IMG/VR virus record: IMGVR_UViG_2579778606_000009
DNA: 8,499 nt
Source of the DNA: a virus
Lineage: Duplodnaviria > Heunggongvirae > Uroviricota > Caudoviricetes
Direction: 5' to 3' (one strand)
Positions within the stretch are counted from its first letter, which is position 1. Each line of letters opens with the position of its first letter. The position numbers were made by a program, and so were the translations under genes. Below the pieces are notes generated by a model. That model was not told the DNA's origin. It made no database searches and saw only the letters and a program-made list of their open reading frames with translations. Shown here in pieces: positions 253 through 8,499 of the stretch.

Positions 253-3200
253 ATGGGTAAAGGCAGCAGTAAGGGGCATACCCCGCGCGAAGCGAAGGAC
301 AACCTGAAGTCCACGCAGCTGCTGAGTGTGATCGATGCCATCAGCGAAGGGCCGGTTGAAGGTCCGGTGGATGGATTAAAAAGCGTGCTGCTGAACAGTA
401 CGCCGGTGCTGGACAGTGAGGGGAATACCAATATATCCGGCGTCACGGTGGTGTTCCGGGCCGGTGAGCAGGAGCAGACACCGCCGGAGGGATTTGAATC
501 CTCCGGCTCCGAGACGGTGCTCGGTACAGAAGTGAAATATGACACGCCGATAACCCGGACCATCACGTCGGCAAACATTGACCGTCTGCGTTTTACTTTC
601 GGCGTGCAGGCACTGGTGGAAACCACCTCAAAGGGGGACAGGAATCCATCGGAAGTCCGCCTGCTGGTTCAGATACAACGTAACGGTGGCTGGGTGACGG
701 AAAAAGACATCACCATTAAGGGTAAAACCACTTCACAGTATCTGGCCTCGGTTGTGGTGGATAACCTGCCGCCGCGCCCGTTTAATATCCGGATGCGCAG
801 GATGACGCCGGACAGCACCACAGACCAGCTGCAGAACAAAACGCTCTGGTCGTCATACACTGAAATCATCGATGTGAAACAGTGCTACCCGAACACGGCA
901 CTGGTCGGCGTGCAGGTGGACTCGGAACAGTTCGGCAGCCAGCAGGTGAGCCGTAATTATCATCTTCGCGGGCGCATTCTGCAGGTGCCATCGAACTATA
1001 ACCCGCAGACTCGGCAATACAGCGGTATCTGGGACGGAACGTTTAAGCCAGCATACAGCAATAACATGGCCTGGTGTCTGTGGGATATGCTGACCCATCC
1101 ACGCTACGGCATGGGGAAACGTCTTGGTGCGGCGGATGTGGACAAATGGGCGCTGTATGTCATCGGCCAGTACTGCGACCAGTCAGTGCCGGACGGCTTT
1201 GGCGGCACGGAGCCGCGCATCACCTGTAATGCGTACCTGACCACACAGCGCAAGGCGTGGGATGTGCTCAGTGATTTCTGTTCGGCGATGCGCTGTATGC
1301 TGGTATGGAACGGGCAGACGCTGACGTTCGTGCAGGACCGACCGTCGGATAAGGTGTGGACCTATAACCACAGTAATGTGGTGATGCCGGATGATGGCGC
1401 GCCGTTCCGCTACAGCTTCAGCGCCCTGAAGGACCGCCATAATGCCGTTGAGGTGAACTGGATTGACCCGGATAACGGCTGGGAGACGGCGACAGAGCTT
1501 GTTGAAGATACGCAGGCCATTCTCCGTTACGGTCGTAACGTCACGAAGATGGATGCCTTTGGCTGTACCAGCCGGGGGCAGGCGCACCGCGCCGGGCTGT
1601 GGCTGATTAAAACGGAACTGCTGGAAACGCAGACCGTGGACTTCAGCGTGGGTGCCGAAGGGCTTCGCCATGTACCGGGCGATGTCATTGAAATCTGTGA
1701 TGATGACTATGCCGGTATCAGCACCGGTGGTCGCGTGCTGGCGGTGAACAGCCAGACCCGGACGCTGACGCTCGACCGTGAAATCACGCTGCCATCCTCC
1801 GGTACCACGCTGATAAGCCTGGTTGACGGAAGTGGTAATCCGGTCAGCGTGGAGGTTCAGTCCGTCACCGACGGACTTAAGGTGAAAGTGAACCGGGTTC
1901 CTGACGGCGTTGCAGAATACAGTGTGTGGGGGCTGAAGCTGCCGACGCTGCGCCAGCGCCTGTTCCGCTGTGTGAGTATCCGTGAGAACGATGACGGCAC
2001 GTATGCCATCACTGCCGTGCAGCATGTACCGGAAAAAGAAGCCATCGTGGATAACGGGGCGCACTTTGACGGCGACCAGAGCGGCACGGTGAATGGTGTC
2101 ACGCCGCCAGCGGTGCAGCACCTGACCGCCGAAGTCACCGCAGACAGCGGGGAATATCAGGTGCTGGCGCGCTGGGACACGCCGAAGGTGGTGAAGGGCG
2201 TGAGCTTCCTGCTTCGCCTGACCGTGGCAGCGGATGACGGCAGTGAGCGGCTGGTCAGCACGGCCCGGACGACGGAAACCACATACCGCTTCACGCAACT
2301 GGCGCTGGGGCGGTACACGCTGACAGTCCGGGCGGTAAATGCGTGGGGACAGCAGGGCGATCCGGCGTCGGTATCGTTCCGGATTGCCGCACCGGTAGCA
2401 CCGTCGCGGATTGAGCTGACGCCGGGGTATTTTCAGATAACCGCCACGCCGCATCTTGCCGTTTATGACCCGACGGTACAGTTTGAGTTCTGGTTCTCGG
2501 AAAAGCGGATTACCGATATCAGGCAGGTTGAAACCACAGCCAGCTATCTTGGCACGGGGCTGTACTGGATAGCCGCCAGTATCAATATCAAACCGGGCCA
2601 TGATTATTATTTTTACGTTCGCAGTGTGAACACCGTTGGCAAATCGGCATTCGTGGAGGCTGTTGGTCAGCCGAGTGATGATGCATCCGGCTATCTGGAT
2701 TTTTTCAAAGGCGAGATAGGGAAAACCCATCTGGCTCAGGAGCTGTGGACGCAGATTGATAACGGTCAGCTTGCGCCTGACCTGGCTGAAATCAGGACGT
2801 CCATTACGGATGTCAGCAATGAAATCACGCAGACCGTCAATAAGAAACTGGAAGACCAGAGTGCAGCGATCCAGCAGATACAGAAGGTTCAGGTTGATAC
2901 AAATAATAACCTGAACAGCATGTGGGCAGTGAAGCTGCAGCAGATGCAGGACGGACGCCTTTATATTGCGGGTATCGGTGCCGGTATTGAGAACACCCCC
3001 GACGGCATGCAGAGTCAGGTGCTGCTGGCGGCGGACAGGATTGCGATGATTAATCCTGCGAATGGCAACACAAAGCCGATGTTTGTTGGTCAGGGCGATC
3101 AGATATTCATGAATGAAGTGTTCCTGAAATATCTGACGGCTCCCACCATTACCAGCGGCGGTAATCCTCCGGCATTTTCCCTGACACCGGACGGGCGACT

Positions 3201-3327
3201 GACGGCGAAAAATGCCGATATCAGCGGTAGCGTGAATGCGAACTCTGGGACGCTCAACAACGTCACGATTAACGATAACTGTCGCCGGAAAAACTGTCCG
3301 CGAACCAGGATGAAGGGTTGTCGTTAA
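253..3327 (+). CDS. J: Host specificity protein J (central tail fibre / tail tip), 1024-aa ORF that ends prematurely relative to lambda gpJ
   Basis: ATG at 253 preceded by ggag at 241-244. The translation [34 protein letters not shown]... is near-identical, from memory, to lambda gpJ across most of its length, including the fibronectin-like central region and ...[40 protein letters not shown].... The frame ends at TAA 3325-3327 after a non-homologous tail [16 protein letters not shown]. Confidence 0.9.
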
Positions 3328-3331
3328 AACA

Positions 3332-3727
3332 GTGGGCAAAGCTTTCCCCCGGGACTCCCGTGCACCGGAGCGGTGGCCATCAGGGACCATTACCGTCAGG
3401 GTTTATGACGATCAGCCGTTTGACCGGCAAATTGTTATTCCAGCGGTGGCTTTCAGCGGTGCCAGACATGAACGGGAGAATAGCGATACTTATTCGTCAT
3501 GCCGCCTGATAGTGAAGAAAAACGGGGCTGAAATTTATAACCGAACGGCTCTGGATAATACTCTGATTTACACGGGTGTTATTGATATGCCTGCAGGCAG
3601 TGGCGTAATGACACTGGAGTTTTCTGTATCAGCATGGTGGGTAAATGGCTGGTATCCCACAGCAAGTATCAGCGATTTGCTGGTTGTTGTGATGAAGAAA
3701 GCCACTGCAGGCATCACGATTAGCTGA
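3332..3727 (+). pseudogene. J: J C-terminal receptor-binding domain, out of frame with the main J ORF (frameshifted J 3' segment)
   Basis: Frame 2 reads (RVVV)[46 protein letters not shown]...DMPAGSGVMTLEFS...VVVMKKATAGITIS*, colinear with the lambda gpJ C-terminus (...AAFPRQRESSVDWPSGTRTVTVTDDHPFDRQIVVLP...DMPAGRGNV...VMVIKKQALGISVV). Homology in this frame begins around 3317; the ORF track assigns a GTG at 3332. A short bridging segment in frame 3 (3279-3320, ...[10 protein letters not shown]...) links the two, implying two single-base frame changes. Confidence 0.7.
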
Positions 3728-3794: not shown

Positions 3795-4394
3795 ATGCGT
3801 AAATTATGTGCTGTTATTCTGTCCACAGTAGTCTGGCTGGTCGCCGCTGGTACGCCAGCGAGCGCAGCAGAGCATCAGTCCACACTAAGCGCCGGGTATC
3901 TTCAGACCCATACTGATATGCCCGGCAACGATGACCTGAAGGGCATTAACGTGAAATACCGTTATGAATTTACGGACACGCTGGGGCTGGTGACGTCATT
4001 CAGTTATGCCATTGTAAAACATGAGCAAAAAACGCATTACAGCGATACCCGCTGGCATGAAGATTCAGTGCGTAACCGCTGGTTCAGCATGATGGCGGGG
4101 CCGTCTGTACGCGTGAATGAATGGTTCAGTGCTTATGCGATGGCAGGTGTGGCTTACAGCCGTGTTTCAACTTTTTCCGGGGATTATCTCCGCGTAACTG
4201 ACAGCAAGGGGAAAACGCACGATGTGCTGACCGGAAGTGATGACGGTCGCCACAGCAACACGTCTCTGGCGTGGGGGGCTGGCGTGCAGTTTAACCCGAC
4301 CGAATCCGTGGCCATTGATATTGCTTATGAAGGCTCCGGCAGTGGTGACTGGCGCACTGACGGTTTCATCGTGGGTGTCGGTTATAAATTCTGA
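3795..4394 (+). CDS. lom: Lom, Ail/Lom-family 8-stranded beta-barrel outer-membrane protein
   Basis: RBS gagagg (3784-3789) and ATG at 3795. N-terminal signal peptide MRKLCAVILSTVVWLVAAGTPASA|AE. The C-terminus ...VAIDIAYEGSGSGDWRTDGFIVGVGYKF* matches lambda Lom as I recall it and ends in the aromatic residue typical of OMPs. Position between J and stf is as in lambda. Confidence 0.9.
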   Translation: MRKLCAVILSTVVWLVAAGTPASAAEHQSTLSAGYLQTHTDMPGNDDLKGINVKYRYEFTDTLGLVTSFSYAIVKHEQKTHYSDTRWHEDSVRNRWFSMMAGPSVRVNEWFSAYAMAGVAYSRVSTFSGDYLRVTDSKGKTHDVLTGSDDGRHSNTSLAWGAGVQFNPTESVAIDIAYEGSGSGDWRTDGFIVGVGYKF

Positions 4395-4447: not shown

Positions 4448-4480
4448 GTGGAGTGGATATAGCAATTAAAAATCTCAGGT

Positions 4481-6832
4481 GTGCTGAAAGATTGTGCGGG
4501 AAAACCAATACAGAACTGCACTATTCAACTGAAGGCAAAGCGTAACAGCACCACGGTACTGGTGAACACGGTGGCCTCTGAAAATCCGGATGAAGCCGGG
4601 CGTTACAGCATGGATGTTGAGCATGGCCAGTACAGCGTCATCCTGCTGGTTGAAGGTTTTCCGCCTTCACATGCCGGGACCATTACCGTCTATGAAGGCT
4701 CCAGACCAGGTACGCTGAATGATTTTCTCGGTGCCATGACGGAAGAGGATGTCATGCCGGAGGCATTGCGTCGTTTTGAGGCAATGGTGGAAGAAGTGGC
4801 ACGCAACGCCGAAGCCGCCTCTCAGAGCGCAGCGGCGGCAAAGAAATCCGAAACTGCAGCGGCATCATCGAAGAACGCGGCGAAAACCTCAGAAACGAAT
4901 GCAGCTAATAGTGCACAGGCGGCAGCGACCTCAAAGACTGCATCGGCAAACTCTGCGACAGCAGCCAAAAAATCAGAAACCAACGCGAAAAACAGTGAGA
5001 CAGCCGCAAAGACGAGCGAAACCAACGCAAAGTCCAGCCAGACGGCAGCGAAAACCAGCGAAACGAATGCCAAAGCCAGTGAAACTGCGGCAAAAAACAG
5101 CCAGGCTGCAGCAGCTGAAAGCGAGAGCGCGGCAGCCGGTTCTGCGACTTCAGCAGCTGGATCAGCAACTGCTGCGGCTAACAGCCAGAAAGCTGCGAAG
5201 ACGAGTGAAACTAACGCAAAGTCCAGCCAGACGGCAGCGAAGACCAGCGAAACGAATGCCAAAGCCAGTGAAACTGCGGCGAAAAGCAGTCAGGATGCAG
5301 CGGCCCAAAGCGAGAGTGCCGCAGCCAGTTCTGCAAGCGCGGCGGCTGCTTCTGCCACTGCATCAGCTAACAGTCAAAAAGCAGCAAAAACCAGTGAAAC
5401 CAACGCAAAGGTGAGCGAAACAGCGGCTGCGAACTCAGCGAAAGCATCGGCAGCAAGCCAGACGGCAGCTAAAGCAAGCGAAGATGCAGCCAGAGAGTAC
5501 GCAAGCCAGGCTGCGGAGCCGTATAAATATGTCTTACAACCGCTACCTGATGTGTGGATACCGTTTAACGATTCGCTGGATATGATTACGGGCTTTTCGC
5601 CATCATATAAAAAGATTGTTATTGGCGACGACGAAATAACAATGCCTGGCGACAAGGTTGTTAAGTTTAAACGCGCATCGAAAGCAACCTATATTAATAA
5701 ATCTGGTGTGCTTACAGAGGCTGCCATTGACGAGCCACGATTTGAACGTGATGGCCTGCTTATTGAGGGACAACGAACAAACTACATGCTCAATTCGGAA
5801 AACCCTGCCAGTTGGGGGCGATCGTCAAATATGGATGTTCCCGAAACCGGGACTGATAGTTTTGGTTTTACCTATGGAAAGTTTGTCTGTAACGATTCTC
5901 TGATTGGGCAAACGTCAGCCATTAATATGGCATCAATTGCTGCTACAAAGTCAGTTGATGTTTCAGGCGATAACAAGTACGTGACAACCTCATGTCGTTT
6001 TAAAACAGAACGACAGGTAAGGTTGCGTATCCGCTTTGATAAATATGACGGTAGTGCAACAACTTTTCTTGGTGATGCATATATTGATACACAAACGCTT
6101 GAAATTAATATGACAGGTGGCGCGGCCTCAAGGATTACAGCGAGAGTCAGAAAGGACGAAGCTACCGGATGGATTTTTGCAGAGGCAACAATCCTGGCAA
6201 TTGATGATGAGTTAAAAATAGGATCTCAGATACAGTATTCTCCTAAGCAGGGCGGAGCAACCGTATCTGGAGACTATATTTATCTGGCCACCCCTCAGGT
6301 TGAGGATGGTTCGTGTGCATCATCTTTTATTATCTCAGGAACGACGGCGGCTACCCGCGCAAGCGATATAGTTACAGTTCCAATTAATAATAATCTTTAT
6401 AATCTTCCTTTTACGGTTCTTTGTGAGGTACATAAGAACTGGTATAAAACGCCAAATGCAGCGCCGCGTGTTTTTGATACAGGCGGTCATCAAACCGGAG
6501 CGGCTATTATTCTTGGCTTCGGTCGTTCAACAGATTACGACGGATTTCCTTATTGCGATATTGGAGGAGCTAACAGACGGGTAAACGAAAACGCATCGCT
6601 TGAAAAAATGGTTATGGGGATGCGTGTAAAATCAGATCAGTCTACGTGCTCAGTAAGTAACGGGCGCATATCCAGCGAAACAAAGACTACGTGGTCCTAT
6701 ATTCAGAACTCTGCAACCATCCGTATTGGAGGCCAGACTACAGCAGGCTTACGTCATTTATTTGGTCATATCAGGAATTTCAGAATATGGCATAAAGCAT
6801 TAACAGACCAACAAATGGCTGAGGTTATTTAA
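4481..6832 (+). CDS. stf: Side tail fibre protein: lambda Stf-like N-terminal domain, Ala/Ser/Thr-rich repeat shaft, and a non-lambda distal domain with a concanavalin/LamG-like C-terminal motif
   Basis: 783-aa ORF. Residues 1-100 (..KDCAGKPIQNCTIQLKAKRNSTTVLVNTVASENPDEAGRYSMDVEHGQYSVILLVEGFPPSHAGTITVYEGSRPGTLNDFLGAMTEED...) match the lambda Stf N-terminus from memory. The authentic start is probably GTG 4453 (VDIAIK...) in another frame, joined by a single-base frameshift at the A5 run 4468-4472. The C-terminal 430 aa are unrelated to lambda Stf and end ...GLRHLFGHIRNFRIWHKALTDQQMAEVI*. Confidence 0.85.
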   Translation: MLKDCAGKPIQNCTIQLKAKRNSTTVLVNTVASENPDEAGRYSMDVEHGQYSVILLVEGFPPSHAGTITVYEGSRPGTLNDFLGAMTEEDVMPEALRRFEAMVEEVARNAEAASQSAAAAKKSETAAASSKNAAKTSETNAANSAQAAATSKTASANSATAAKKSETNAKNSETAAKTSETNAKSSQTAAKTSETNAKASETAAKNSQAAAAESESAAAGSATSAAGSATAAANSQKAAKTSETNAKSSQTAAKTSETNAKASETAAKSSQDAAAQSESAAASSASAAAASATASANSQKAAKTSETNAKVSETAAANSAKASAASQTAAKASEDAAREYASQAAEPYKYVLQPLPDVWIPFNDSLDMITGFSPSYKKIVIGDDEITMPGDKVVKFKRASKATYINKSGVLTEAAIDEPRFERDGLLIEGQRTNYMLNSENPASWGRSSNMDVPETGTDSFGFTYGKFVCNDSLIGQTSAINMASIAATKSVDVSGDNKYVTTSCRFKTERQVRLRIRFDKYDGSATTFLGDAYIDTQTLEINMTGGAASRITARVRKDEATGWIFAEATILAIDDELKIGSQIQYSPKQGGATVSGDYIYLATPQVEDGSCASSFIISGTTAATRASDIVTVPINNNLYNLPFTVLCEVHKNWYKTPNAAPRVFDTGGHQTGAAIILGFGRSTDYDGFPYCDIGGANRRVNENASLEKMVMGMRVKSDQSTCSVSNGRISSETKTTWSYIQNSATIRIGGQTTAGLRHLFGHIRNFRIWHKALTDQQMAEVI
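5008..5385 (+). repeat. Two tandem copies of a 189-bp (63-aa) unit inside the stf shaft, within a longer degenerate Ala/Ser/Thr/Lys repeat region (about 4806-5500)
   Basis: gacgagcgaaaccaacgcaaagtccagccagacggcagcgaaaaccagcgaaacgaatgccaaagccagtgaaactgcggc... at 5011 recurs with a few substitutions at 5200 (offset 189). At protein level KTSETNAKSSQTAAKTSETNAKASETAAK(N/S)SQ(A/D)AAA(E/Q)SESAAA(G/S)S... repeats, with shorter AAKTSETNAK-type sub-repeats nested inside. Confidence 0.8.
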
Positions 6833-7113
6833 TGAAAGATATTACGTTGAAATTTGCCGACAGGGCCGACTTTTCGGCCTTTATGGAGAGTATTGGCTAT
6901 TATGATGACGAGTCGATGCAGGATGATATTCTTATTGACGTGATAGGTAACGTGTACAAAGAAACCGGAGAACTGACTGAAGATGGCGAACCGGTATGTG
7001 TTAAGGAAGACGGATATTTTGTAAACGTGCGCATCATTAATGATTCGCAAATATCGTCATTATTCGATGAATACGTGGTTGCTGTTGAGCATCAACTTCG
7101 TGGCTGGATGTGA
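6832..7113 (+). CDS. Hypothetical small acidic protein (93 aa), translationally coupled to stf; possible fibre chaperone or adaptor
   Basis: ATG at 6832 overlaps the stf stop (TAATG) with gaggt at 6821-6825 upstream. It ends at TGA 7111-7113, 9 nt before the next gene. D/E-rich, no TM or signal sequence; I do not recognise a family. It occupies the position where lambda has tfa but does not resemble Tfa. Confidence 0.55.
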   Translation: MKDITLKFADRADFSAFMESIGYYDDESMQDDILIDVIGNVYKETGELTEDGEPVCVKEDGYFVNVRIINDSQISSLFDEYVVAVEHQLRGWM

Positions 7114-7122
7114 GGAAGAAAA

Positions 7123-8163
7123 ATGGCTACATCGACAGTAATTCCTGATGACATCAAAACGCTAAAATCCGACGTTAGCAAATTAAAAAACGATCAAGGA
7201 AGCTACGCAACAAAATTATATGTAGACAGCAAAGATGAAATCGTTGGTGACTGGTCTGCTTCATGGTATCAGCAGGTATTGCCAACTAGCGGAGCTATAT
7301 TTGGGAGAAAACTCCGCTCAACTCACAGGACGGCAGGTGTTGAGGATGCGTATTGCGAACTATACCTCAAAAAATGGATAGACAGTCCAGGTAACGCAAT
7401 GGCGCGCCTTAACCTGAACGATAACGGGACAAACATTTGCTGGGACTTTACCAACCTTTATGGCGGTACGATGATTTTTCCCGGTGACAGCGGATACCTC
7501 AAAATGGGTAACTGCCTTATGTCATACAGCAAGCGTGGAAGTAACGCGCTTATTAAATTTGATTACACCGACACATTACAGATCAAATATGCCAATCATG
7601 GGTCAACCATGACATTAAACACACAGGGAACCGCTTATGCTGGTGTTACTGCTCAATTGTGGGGCAACTCCAGCCGTCCTGTTGTTTATGAAGTCGGTGT
7701 TGATGGTGGCGCTTATATGTTCTATGCGCAGAAAAATACCGATAACACCTATATGTTAAGCGTTAATGGTGCATGTCATGCCACCGCATTTAACCAGCAT
7801 TCCGACCGGGATCTGAAAGACAACATTCAGGTGATCGATAATGCAACCGACCGCATCCGTAAAATGAACGGCTATACATACACGCTTAAAGAAAACGGTA
7901 TGCCCTATGCTGGTGTCATTGCACAGGAAGCTCTGGAAGCAATCCCAGAAGTTGTAGGTTCCGCAATGAAATATCAGGACGGTGCAAGCGGATCGGAAGG
8001 TGAAGAAGGTGAACGTTATTACACAGTAGATTATTCTGGTGTTACTGGCTTGCTTGTTCAGGTAGCCAGAGAGTCAGACGACAGAATAACAGCACTGGAA
8101 GAAGAAAATGCAGAATTAAAACAAAGATTATCTGCAATTGAGGCGACGCTTGCGTCTAAATAA
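7123..8163 (+). CDS. Tail-fibre/tailspike-like protein (346 aa) with a C-terminal Peptidase_S74-type intramolecular chaperone domain
   Basis: RBS gaggaag (7112-7118) and ATG at 7123. The C-terminal about 120 aa read S227-DRDLK232-DNIQVIDNATDRIRKMNGYTYTLKENGMPYAGVIAQEALEAIPEVVG...ITALEEENAELKQRLSAIE. This matches the S-D-x-x-L-K Ser/Lys dyad motif, the GVIAQE...P.V core and the terminal coiled coil of endosialidase and T5 pb1-type self-cleaving chaperone domains. The preceding region is beta-rich (Gly/Asn/Thr/Tyr). Confidence 0.75.
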   Translation: MATSTVIPDDIKTLKSDVSKLKNDQGSYATKLYVDSKDEIVGDWSASWYQQVLPTSGAIFGRKLRSTHRTAGVEDAYCELYLKKWIDSPGNAMARLNLNDNGTNICWDFTNLYGGTMIFPGDSGYLKMGNCLMSYSKRGSNALIKFDYTDTLQIKYANHGSTMTLNTQGTAYAGVTAQLWGNSSRPVVYEVGVDGGAYMFYAQKNTDNTYMLSVNGACHATAFNQHSDRDLKDNIQVIDNATDRIRKMNGYTYTLKENGMPYAGVIAQEALEAIPEVVGSAMKYQDGASGSEGEEGERYYTVDYSGVTGLLVQVARESDDRITALEEENAELKQRLSAIEATLASK

Positions 8164-8169
8164 TATTAA

Positions 8170-8192
8170 GGGGCCGAGCGCCCCGTTTTATT
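8170..8192 (+). terminator. Rho-independent terminator after the 346-aa gene
   Basis: ggggc (8170-8174), loop cgagc, gcccc (8180-8184), followed by gttttatt. Confidence 0.55.
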
Positions 8193-8205
8193 GGGTAGGA
8201 TGAAA

Positions 8206-8499
8206 ATGGATATAACACCTTTCCTTCATGCACTTTGTGCTGTGGCTGCGCAGGTACTGGTTGGTCTTTTTACCGGAAACTGGGCTTACGGGGCGATAGC
8301 CGGTTGTACGTTCTTCATTGCTCGTGAACATACCCAGGCAGAATATCGCTGGATTGAAATGTTCGGGCATGGCAAGCGTATGAATATGCCGTGGTGGGGT
8401 GGTTTTGATCCGCGCGTGTGGGATGTGGCAAGCCTGATGGATTTTTCTGTGCCGGTGGTGGCTTGTCTGCTGGTCTGGCTGTTGGTTAATCGTGGGTGA
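8206..8499 (+). CDS. Small hydrophobic membrane protein of unknown function (about 97 aa, three predicted helices); candidate moron
   Basis: ATG at 8206 with agga (8197-8200) 5 nt upstream; alternative starts are ATG 8200 and the track's TTG 8191. Stop is TGA 8497-8499. Three hydrophobic stretches: ITPFLHALCAVAAQVLVGLF, AYGAIAGCTFFIA, FSVPVVACLLVWLLV. No lipobox, and no charged C-terminal tail of the kind holins carry. Family not recognised. Confidence 0.6.
   Translation: MDITPFLHALCAVAAQVLVGLFTGNWAYGAIAGCTFFIAREHTQAEYRWIEMFGHGKRMNMPWWGGFDPRVWDVASLMDFSVPVVACLLVWLLVNRG

Follow-up and report, generated by a model that had tools for sequence, protein, structure and literature searches.

A probable short tail fiber precursor with a predicted self-cleaving peptidase S74 chaperone in a lambdoid E. 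coli prophage

INTRODUCTION

Self-cleaving S74 chaperones are a textbook feature of phage fibers and spikes. The type member of the family is K1F gp17, whose passenger is an endosialidase triple beta-helix stalk; its GenBank record lists a mature gp17 peptide of residues 2 to 910 and a CTD of residues 911 to 1064. In T5, the lateral fiber protein pb1 is a single 1396-aa polypeptide attached directly to the tail. Its Thr1263-Ser1264 bond is cut, and the serine leaves with the chaperone, which is built around a central trimeric coiled coil, and is absent from the mature fiber (PMC4690869). K1F is likewise reported to be cut N-terminal to the serine; only for the phi29 appendage was the serine kept in the model of the mature protein, "with less convincing density" (PMC4690869). 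In the T-even phage S16, the long tail fiber protein gp37 is cut at DLNVS^SDRRIKK (PMC7917993), directly before SD, and once the chaperone has left, a surface becomes exposed on which a separate adhesin, gp38, docks. The ICA domain of MyRF is a eukaryotic homologue of the phage chaperone; it belongs to a membrane-bound transcription factor, and its biological context is unrelated.

Lateral fibers may consist of one, two, or more proteins, as noted in the BASEL paper, and two-protein fibers have already been described: LtfA and LtfB of DT57C and the proximal and distal fibers of Bas32 (PMC4728585, PMC10713586, PMC11990801). In both phages, a tail-anchored main fiber is accompanied by a second fiber that has no domain for tail attachment and terminates in PF13884, the Pfam family of the S74 chaperones.

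Here, we analyzed an 8,499-nucleotide stretch of DNA (the window; IMG/VR record IMGVR_UViG_2579778606_000009) that covers the late tail region of a lambdoid E. coli prophage. A preliminary description of this DNA had proposed an autoproteolytic Ser227/Lys232 site in a 346-aa protein. With a probability of roughly 80%, we consider this protein the precursor of a short trimeric tail fiber of a lambdoid (Tritos/2G7b/PhiR63_1-like) E. coli prophage, with residues 227 to 346 forming a C-terminal intramolecular chaperone of the peptidase S74 family. The S74 domain of the protein is already known, being a standard Ser/Lys chaperone with a public PF13884 label. The present analysis establishes the domain membership of the protein, the register of its dyad, its conservation, and its genomic context.

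RESULTS

The window encodes, in this order, gpJ, lom, a homologue of the side tail fiber gene stf, a 93-aa open reading frame (ORF), the 346-aa ORF, and a small membrane protein ORF (Table 1). Many E. coli genomes contain prophages that match the whole of it at 98.7% identity. The 346-aa gene, part of the late tail operon, is preceded by a Shine-Dalgarno-like GAGGAAG located 6 nt 5' of the ATG, and a terminator-like hairpin follows its stop codon. No overlapping ORF of at least 50 aa was present on the opposite strand of the gene in the ORF list of the window. An Rfam scan of the whole window gave no match, and a promoter scan of the window returned fewer sites than were found in shuffled sequences. 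The match of the 346-aa protein to PHROG 4563, "tail fiber protein," extends from end to end (E = 2.6e-220), and the protein shares 98% identity with cluster P0001, "tail fiber domain-containing protein," a 90%-identity cluster of 2132 members for which the PF13884 label is precomputed. Annotated tail fiber proteins from lambdoid phages and prophages of E. coli, namely, those of Tritos (TRITO_21), 2G7b, and PhiR63_1, are also about 98% identical to it and already bear the PF13884 label; the part of the protein predicted to remain in the mature fiber is 100% identical in PhiR63_1, an isolated phage. An NCBIfam search with the protein returned only sub-threshold coiled-coil noise, and a literature search covering the protein, its close relatives, and the cassette in lambdoid phages found no direct experiment.

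TABLE 1 Coordinates of the tail genes in the window and of the features of the 346-aa gene
Feature	Coordinates	Strand	Basis or remark
gpJ	253-3327		Remainder in another frame, 3332-3727
lom	3795-4394		
Side tail fiber gene (stf homologue)	4481..6832	+	Pfam phage_tail_N; NCBIfam GTA_spike_fiber domain
93-aa ORF	6832..7113	+	PHROG 1361 (function unknown); middle gene of the cassette
346-aa gene, probable short tail fiber precursor	7123..8163	+	ORF list and sequence; stop codon included
N-terminal conserved motif M-x-T-x-T-x-I-P-x-D-I-x-x-L-K, then helical heptad-like stalk (residues 1-28)	7123..7206	+	Putative docking peptide
Conserved beta-rich fiber module (residues 170-226), directly before the predicted cut	7630..7800	+	Homologous to T4 gp34 module
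Predicted scissile bond His226-Ser227	7798..7803	+	Alignment to T5 pb1 (Thr1263-Ser1264), K1F gp17 (910-Ser911), and S16 gp37 (DLNVS^SDRRIKK)
C-terminal intramolecular chaperone/peptidase S74 domain (residues 227-346)	7801..8160	+	Predicted released fragment of 120 aa, 13.2 kDa, pI 4.4
Ser227 (TCC), predicted nucleophile	7801..7803	+	PF13884 profile position 1; invariant in 96 sequences
Lys232 (AAA), predicted general base of the Ser/Lys dyad	7816..7818	+	PF13884 profile position 6; counterpart of K1F Lys916 and T5 Lys1269; invariant
GVIAQEALEAIPEVV helix block (residues 264-278), conserved S74 core motif	7912..7956	+	G264, I266, A267, Q268, E269, P275, and E276 invariant
C-terminal long helix (residues 304-345; 42 residues)	8032..8157	+	Present in both models; pLDDT of 86-96 in the second; trimeric coiled coil expected
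Terminator-like GC hairpin, then T run	8170..8184	+	Directly 3' of the stop codon of the 346-aa gene
Small membrane protein ORF	from about 8200		

Residues 227 to 278 of the protein match Pfam Peptidase_S74 (PF13884) with an E value of 4.7e-14 and a score of 52.8 bits (gathering score, 22), and the match spans profile positions 1 to 57 of 58. As a check of the register, the T5 and K1F fiber and spike proteins were taken from GenBank and scanned with the same PF13884 model. T5 pb1 aligned through residues 1264 to 1323 with positions 1 to 57, which puts its proven Ser1264 at position 1, and K1F gp17 aligned through residues 916 to 971 with positions 6 to 58, which puts Lys916 at position 6. Both are proven members of the family, and both scored lower than the 346-aa protein (35.9 bits for T5 pb1 and 36.3 bits for K1F gp17). 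In a three-way alignment, S227 corresponds to Ser911 of K1F and Ser1264 of T5, while K232 corresponds to Lys916 and Lys1269, respectively. The endosialidase-chaperone spacing that the preliminary description had read into Ser227/Lys232 is thus borne out by profile positions 1 and 6 and by the T5/K1F alignment. The alignment to the Peptidase_S74 profile that it had named as a check is significant, with no failure to match, and begins exactly at Ser227; the interval that it had marked, 7801 to 8160, contains exactly the 120 codons of S227 to K346.

The dyad lies in the sequence TAFNQH-SDRDLK-DNIQVIDN. Since an S-x4-K spacing recurs at S140-K145 of the same protein, the bare spacing is not significant alone; it is the PF13884 match that lifts the S227/K232 site above chance. 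Among the 120 homologues listed, 116 carry S-D-[RK]-[DE]-L-K, and the other 4 are truncated or bear deletions; the residue preceding the dyad serine varies in these homologues (S, G, H, L, T, V, or Q). In a 96-sequence alignment, S227, D228, L231, and K232 are all invariant. K1F gp17 and the 346-aa protein belong to the same Pfam family, have the domain in the same C-terminal position, and have a chaperone that begins at the serine, and their SNGERK and SDRDLK segments have identical Ser/Lys spacing. They also share a GVIAQ helix motif, the GVIAQE block of the 346-aa protein aligning with GVIAQQ in K1F and GLTVQR in T5. A C-terminal RLSAIE motif is common to all three proteins in the alignment, and the terminal helices of K1F gp17 and the 346-aa protein both end in RLSA(I/L)E. 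The downstream conserved block and the terminal helix are likewise parts of the S74 domain, as had been supposed. T5 pb1 shows an identical profile register and is, like the probable fiber considered here, a siphovirus lateral fiber; the two differ in that the S74 domain is carried here by a 346-aa protein of its own, whose gene lies two places behind that of the main fiber.

The oxyanion hole of T5 involves Arg1250 from the neighboring chain, together with the upstream Asp1239. This arginine was sought in the alignment with T5 and K1F and was not found at the aligned position: where T5 and K1F have the 11-residue segment that bears it, the 346-aa protein shows a gap. Relative to K1F, the Asp...Arg stretch ahead of the serine is shorter and lacks the Arg. 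D207-N208 of the protein pair with the Asp-Asn found in T5 and K1F. Upstream of the serine, R185 is the sole invariant Arg; it lies 42 residues before Ser227, and the module that bears it also occurs in T4 gp34, which has no S74 domain. An S74-like domain that is catalytically dead, still chaperoning the fold and staying attached, would fit the fact that no counterpart of the neighboring-chain arginine of T5 and K1F was identified in this protein. We regard such a domain as highly improbable, given that Ser and Lys are invariant across the family, that the S74 score exceeds those of the proven T5 and K1F domains, and that S16 gp37, with a similar pre-serine module, is reported to be cleaved.

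S16 gp37 is the closest solved relative in sequence (PDB 6f45; E = 3.5e-08 in the profile search, residues 214 to 338), with SDRRIKK in the place of SDRDLKD. A single-sequence search of the PDB with the 346-aa protein returned S16 gp37 only; a profile search added T4 gp34 and MyRF, and T5 and K1F were absent from the matches. The window has no gp38-like gene. Because T5, K1F, and S16 are cut N-terminal to the serine, the cut is expected on that side of Ser227 as well, and the His226-Ser227 bond (His226 codon, 7798 to 7800) is the best prediction for the 346-aa protein, cleavage itself being assumed by homology with high confidence. The placement of the cut C-terminal to Ser227 in the preliminary description therefore does not hold, and its mature protein of 227 aa and fragment of 119 aa are corrected to a predicted 226 aa and 120 aa. 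The product masses of about 25 and 13 kDa that it gave are unchanged by this correction, as the predicted cleavage products have computed masses of 24.9 and 13.2 kDa. The predicted mature chain has a computed pI of 6.9.

The S74 domain occupies the extreme C terminus (residues 227 to 346 of 346) and is preceded by a module resembling parts of T4 gp34 and P2 gpH. In the profile search against PDB sequences, residues 170 to 225 matched chains 4uxe, 5nxf, and 5nxh of T4 gp34, the proximal long tail fiber protein, with an E value of about 1e-7, and residues 110 to 221 resemble part of P2 gpH (tblastn to P2 H). W180, G181, and R185 are invariant in this pre-cleavage module. The passenger here is a small fiber module, in contrast to the endosialidase stalk of K1F. 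At the other end of the protein, the N-terminal motif is kept in all of the short homologues, whereas residues of about 45 to 170 diverge; T5, I7, D10, I11, L14, and K15 do not vary, not even in the VogelGryff homologue, whose overall identity is only 23%. Homologues of 300 to 390 aa share one architecture: behind the strongly conserved N-terminal motif come heptad-like TLKSDVS repeats, which vary in number, and then a divergent center, the conserved pre-cleavage module, and the S74 domain.

Two monomer models were built. The full-length AlphaFold2 model (22 sequences) had a pLDDT of 54, with values of <50 in the S74 region, and was kept out of the fold search because its pLDDT was too low; it contains a helix at residues 9 to 28. 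A monomer model of residues 160 to 346 (96 sequences) reached a pLDDT of 79.9. It has four strands in the pre-cleavage module; beyond Ser227 it shows short helices and hairpins as well as the terminal helix. T4 gp34 provided the top Foldseek matches of the model, with probabilities of 0.98 to 1.0; the match to 3gw6, the K1F chaperone, was not significant (E = 1.4).

Receptor-binding fibers usually combine an end for docking with a binding region that varies and with a chaperone, and the correspondence of the homologues to this plan argues against the label "lateral tail fiber chaperone" that some of them bear in databases. That label nevertheless raises the alternative that the 346-aa protein is no fiber itself and acts in trans as an assembly chaperone for the main side tail fiber. 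The HMD-P4 and VogelGryff homologues are annotated as "putative lateral tail fiber chaperone" and that of ESCO3 as "endosialidase chaperone." Moreover, the 346-aa gene always accompanies the C-terminal domain of the main fiber, which has neither an S74 domain of its own nor a Tfa-type chaperone gene. On the other hand, the chaperone names most likely echo the Pfam title "Chaperone of endosialidase," the characterized S74 domains all act in cis on their own chain, and the 226 residues ahead of the S74 domain hold fiber modules of the T4 gp34 and P2 gpH-like kinds; a variable center between a conserved N-terminal motif and a chaperone is, in addition, how a receptor-binding protein is laid out. 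An action in trans is accordingly unlikely in our view. A separate chaperone of the lambda Tfa or Mu type was also considered for both the 346-aa and the 93-aa proteins and was rejected, as neither gave such a match in Pfam or NCBIfam.

The probable short fiber gene is the third member of a cassette that comprises the C-terminal domain of a main fiber, an ORF of about 92 aa, and the short S74 fiber. In homologous loci, the short S74 fiber gene always follows the ~92-aa ORF and a main fiber with a conserved C terminus of about 430 residues. In the window, the main fiber is the Stf homologue, in which a lambda-type N-terminal domain and a repeat stalk rich in Ala/Ser/Thr precede a C-terminal domain of about 430 aa; a Pfam search of this protein gave no S74 match. 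The C-terminal domain travels with the two downstream genes, and its conserved part opens with a nearly invariant stretch of about 80 residues (QPLPDVWIPFNDSLDMITGFSPSYKK...). It is 94% identical in Nonagvirus ESCO3 and 56 to 66% identical in other contexts, and on its own it occurs in 224 phage records. The cassette lies behind a lambda-type Stf N terminus in the window and in Tritos, and it is present in Nonagvirus ESCO3 (92 to 94% protein identity), in Seuratvirus VogelGryff/Bas25, in ERF-encoding siphophage contigs, and, at the position of the T5 ltf gene, in T5-like phages (metagenome contig L010 and Salmonella phage HMD-P4). Homologues of the 93-aa ORF occupy the same cassette position in ESCO3, PhiR47_1, L007, L009, L010, HMD-P4, and VogelGryff. 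Queuovirinae are among the phages in which the cassette occurs.

The cassette resembles the two-protein fibers of DT57C and Bas32 in pairing a tail-anchored main fiber with a second fiber that ends in PF13884. It differs from them in that the main fiber here has no S74 domain and in that an ORF of about 92 aa always lies between the two fiber genes. We also considered whether the 346-aa protein is a homologue of DT57C LtfB, for which the N-terminal ~45 residues should be like those of LtfB and phiEco32 gp15, the part that attaches to LtfA. The best BLASTP E value was 0.56, no similarity was found outside the S74 domain, and the N termini are unrelated. Since the protein is not an LtfB homologue, a branched-fiber model is an analogy supported by context rather than by homology.

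Outside the 346-aa gene, which is itself intact, the tail genes of this copy carry lesions. Compared with E. coli FDAARGOS_1281, gpJ has 4-bp and 1-bp deletions near 3284 to 3320 that put its receptor-binding domain out of frame. The start codon of stf reads ATA, a further 2-bp deletion is present, and the ORF restarts only at the GTG at 4481. Either the prophage copy is defective or the sequence has local errors; with a frameshifted gpJ and a lost stf ATG, this copy may never be assembled into a virion. The same lesions could make the S74 domain a relic in a decaying prophage, present without productive expression and with a cut site that currently serves no function. We think this improbable: the 346-aa ORF is intact, with its catalytic residues, ribosome-binding site, and terminator; the gene is 98 to 100% identical to that of isolated, plaque-forming phages; and the gpJ and stf lesions could be sequencing errors. 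In any event, decay would concern the host copy and not the identity of the domain. The DNA from 6832 to 8499 is 98 to 98.6% identical to that of Tritos, 2G7b, PhiR63_1, and HannyBb.

DISCUSSION

Our analysis favors a short trimeric tail fiber that is made as a precursor with its own S74 chaperone. For trimerization and actual cleavage of the 346-aa protein, we infer the following course by homology to K1F, T5 pb1, and S16 gp37. Three chains would associate via the C-terminal coiled coil of the chaperone, which would then nucleate folding of the beta-rich module at residues ~170 to 226. Once the trimer is correctly folded, Lys232 would activate Ser227, and the His226-Ser227 bond would be cut in each chain. 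This would free the acidic 120-aa fragment and leave the 226-aa mature fiber subunit in place. The mature fiber probably docks via its conserved N-terminal motif, for which the likely partners are the main side tail fiber, whose gene lies two places upstream, or the product of the intervening 93-aa ORF. The docked short fiber would serve as a second receptor-binding element, either a branch or a distal one.

More tentatively, the whole cassette may be a portable, self-contained "two-headed" lateral-fiber module that can be joined to the tail-attachment domains of various siphophages, among them lambdoid phages, T5-like phages, and Queuovirinae, a proposal that we hold to be possible rather than probable. 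In such a module, the C-terminal domain of the main fiber would be lectin-like and the ~92-aa protein an adaptor. The short fiber would dock through its T-x-I-P-x-D-I-x-x-L-K peptide on the ~80-residue QPLPDVWIPFNDSLDMITGFSPSYKK segment or on the 92-aa protein, and the S74 cut would unmask a receptor-binding tip. Because the two-protein fibers of DT57C and Bas32 have already been described, a module of this kind, if real, would be a variant of a known theme and not a new principle. What is mildly new is limited to the portable cassette and the conserved N-terminal docking motif of the short S74 fiber.

In practical terms, those who express the fiber, whether for lambda-type host-range engineering or for receptor-binding studies, should expect a predicted product of 24.9 kDa ending at His226, and not one of 38 kDa. 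If T5 pb1 is a guide, an S227A form that stays uncleaved may fail to bind receptor. The database name "lateral tail fiber chaperone" is probably misleading, as most of the protein looks like a structural fiber. Finally, the spread of the cassette across unrelated siphophage groups is an example of the modular exchange of host-range determinants.

Three-gene tail-fiber cassette in unrelated phage backgrounds

A cassette of three genes, which encode in order the main-fiber C-terminal domain of ~430 aa, an ORF product of 91 to 93 aa, and a short fiber of ~330 to 390 aa with a terminal S74 chaperone domain, was found to be common to lambdoid phages, Nonagvirus, Seuratvirus, ERF-type siphophage contigs, and T5-like phages. 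In T5-like genomes, the cassette is located where T5 carries ltf. The table lists the coordinates of the cassette and related features.

Coordinates of the tail-gene features in the window and in comparison loci from databases (L-numbers)
Feature	Window	Comparison loci	Description
Main and second gpJ ORFs	253-3327 and 3332-3727		Main ORF ends at 1024 aa; second ORF holds the remainder
Stf stalk	4780-5500 (Stf residues ~100-340)	L002 7464-9839	Long Ala/Ser/Thr-rich repeat, KTSETNAK-type units
Three-gene cassette	5528-8163	L005, L007, L009, L010, L012, L013	
Opening stretch of main-fiber C-terminal domain	5540-5780 (Stf residues ~354-433)		~80 residues, QPLPDVWIPFNDSLDMITGFSPSYKKI.IGDDEIT.PGDK.VKFKRAS...
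93-aa ORF	6832-7113		PHROG 1361
S74-fiber family members with conflicting database names		L013 5559-6725; L012 4884-5885; L005 6292-7347	
PhiR47_1 S74-fiber homologue		L006 6020-7060	Last residue 294, just ahead of C-terminal helix
Downstream ORF	8191-8499		PHROG 1443; hydrophobic, ~97-102 aa

Genes flanking the cassette

Compared to the intact prophage of E. coli FDAARGOS_1281, gpJ carries 4-bp and 1-bp deletions at window positions 3284 to 3320, and PF12421, the C-terminal receptor-binding domain of gpJ, lies in a different frame from the main gpJ ORF. Either gpJ is a pseudogene here, or the sequence is in error at this point. At the start of stf, the main side tail fiber gene (window 4455 to 4481), ATA replaces the ATG start codon and 2 bp are absent directly after it, resulting in an in-frame TAA; the ORF restarts at GTG 4481. 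The stf product matches Pfam phage_tail_N from profile position 9 onward. In RefSeq E. coli genomes, stf is annotated in two parts: one is listed as a partial N-terminal-domain pseudogene and the other as a "head spike fiber domain" CDS of its own. This split probably reflects an artifact of annotation in the repeat region. Beyond the S74 fiber gene, the PHROG 1443 ORF extends exactly to the window end, and its DNA is 94% identical to a gene present in many lambda-like records.

Components of the cassette

Members of the S74-fiber family are variously named "tail fiber protein," "endosialidase chaperone," "putative lateral tail fiber chaperone," and "hypothetical protein" in databases; the "chaperone" names were probably taken over from the title of the Pfam entry rather than based on evidence. 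In the isolated phage PhiR47_1, the chaperone is truncated, and a separate 114-nt ORF comes after the shortened homologue. The 93-aa ORF, which had no match in Pfam or NCBIfam, invariably lies between the main fiber and the S74 fiber. Its invariant residues across six contexts include M1, D3, L6, F8, D36, G39, G61, N65, R67, and W92, and its product may act as an adaptor or chaperone. Within the main-fiber C-terminal domain, the opening stretch is nearly invariant in all phage backgrounds, and identity drops to 56 to 66% over the remainder. This stretch of Stf is a candidate docking site.
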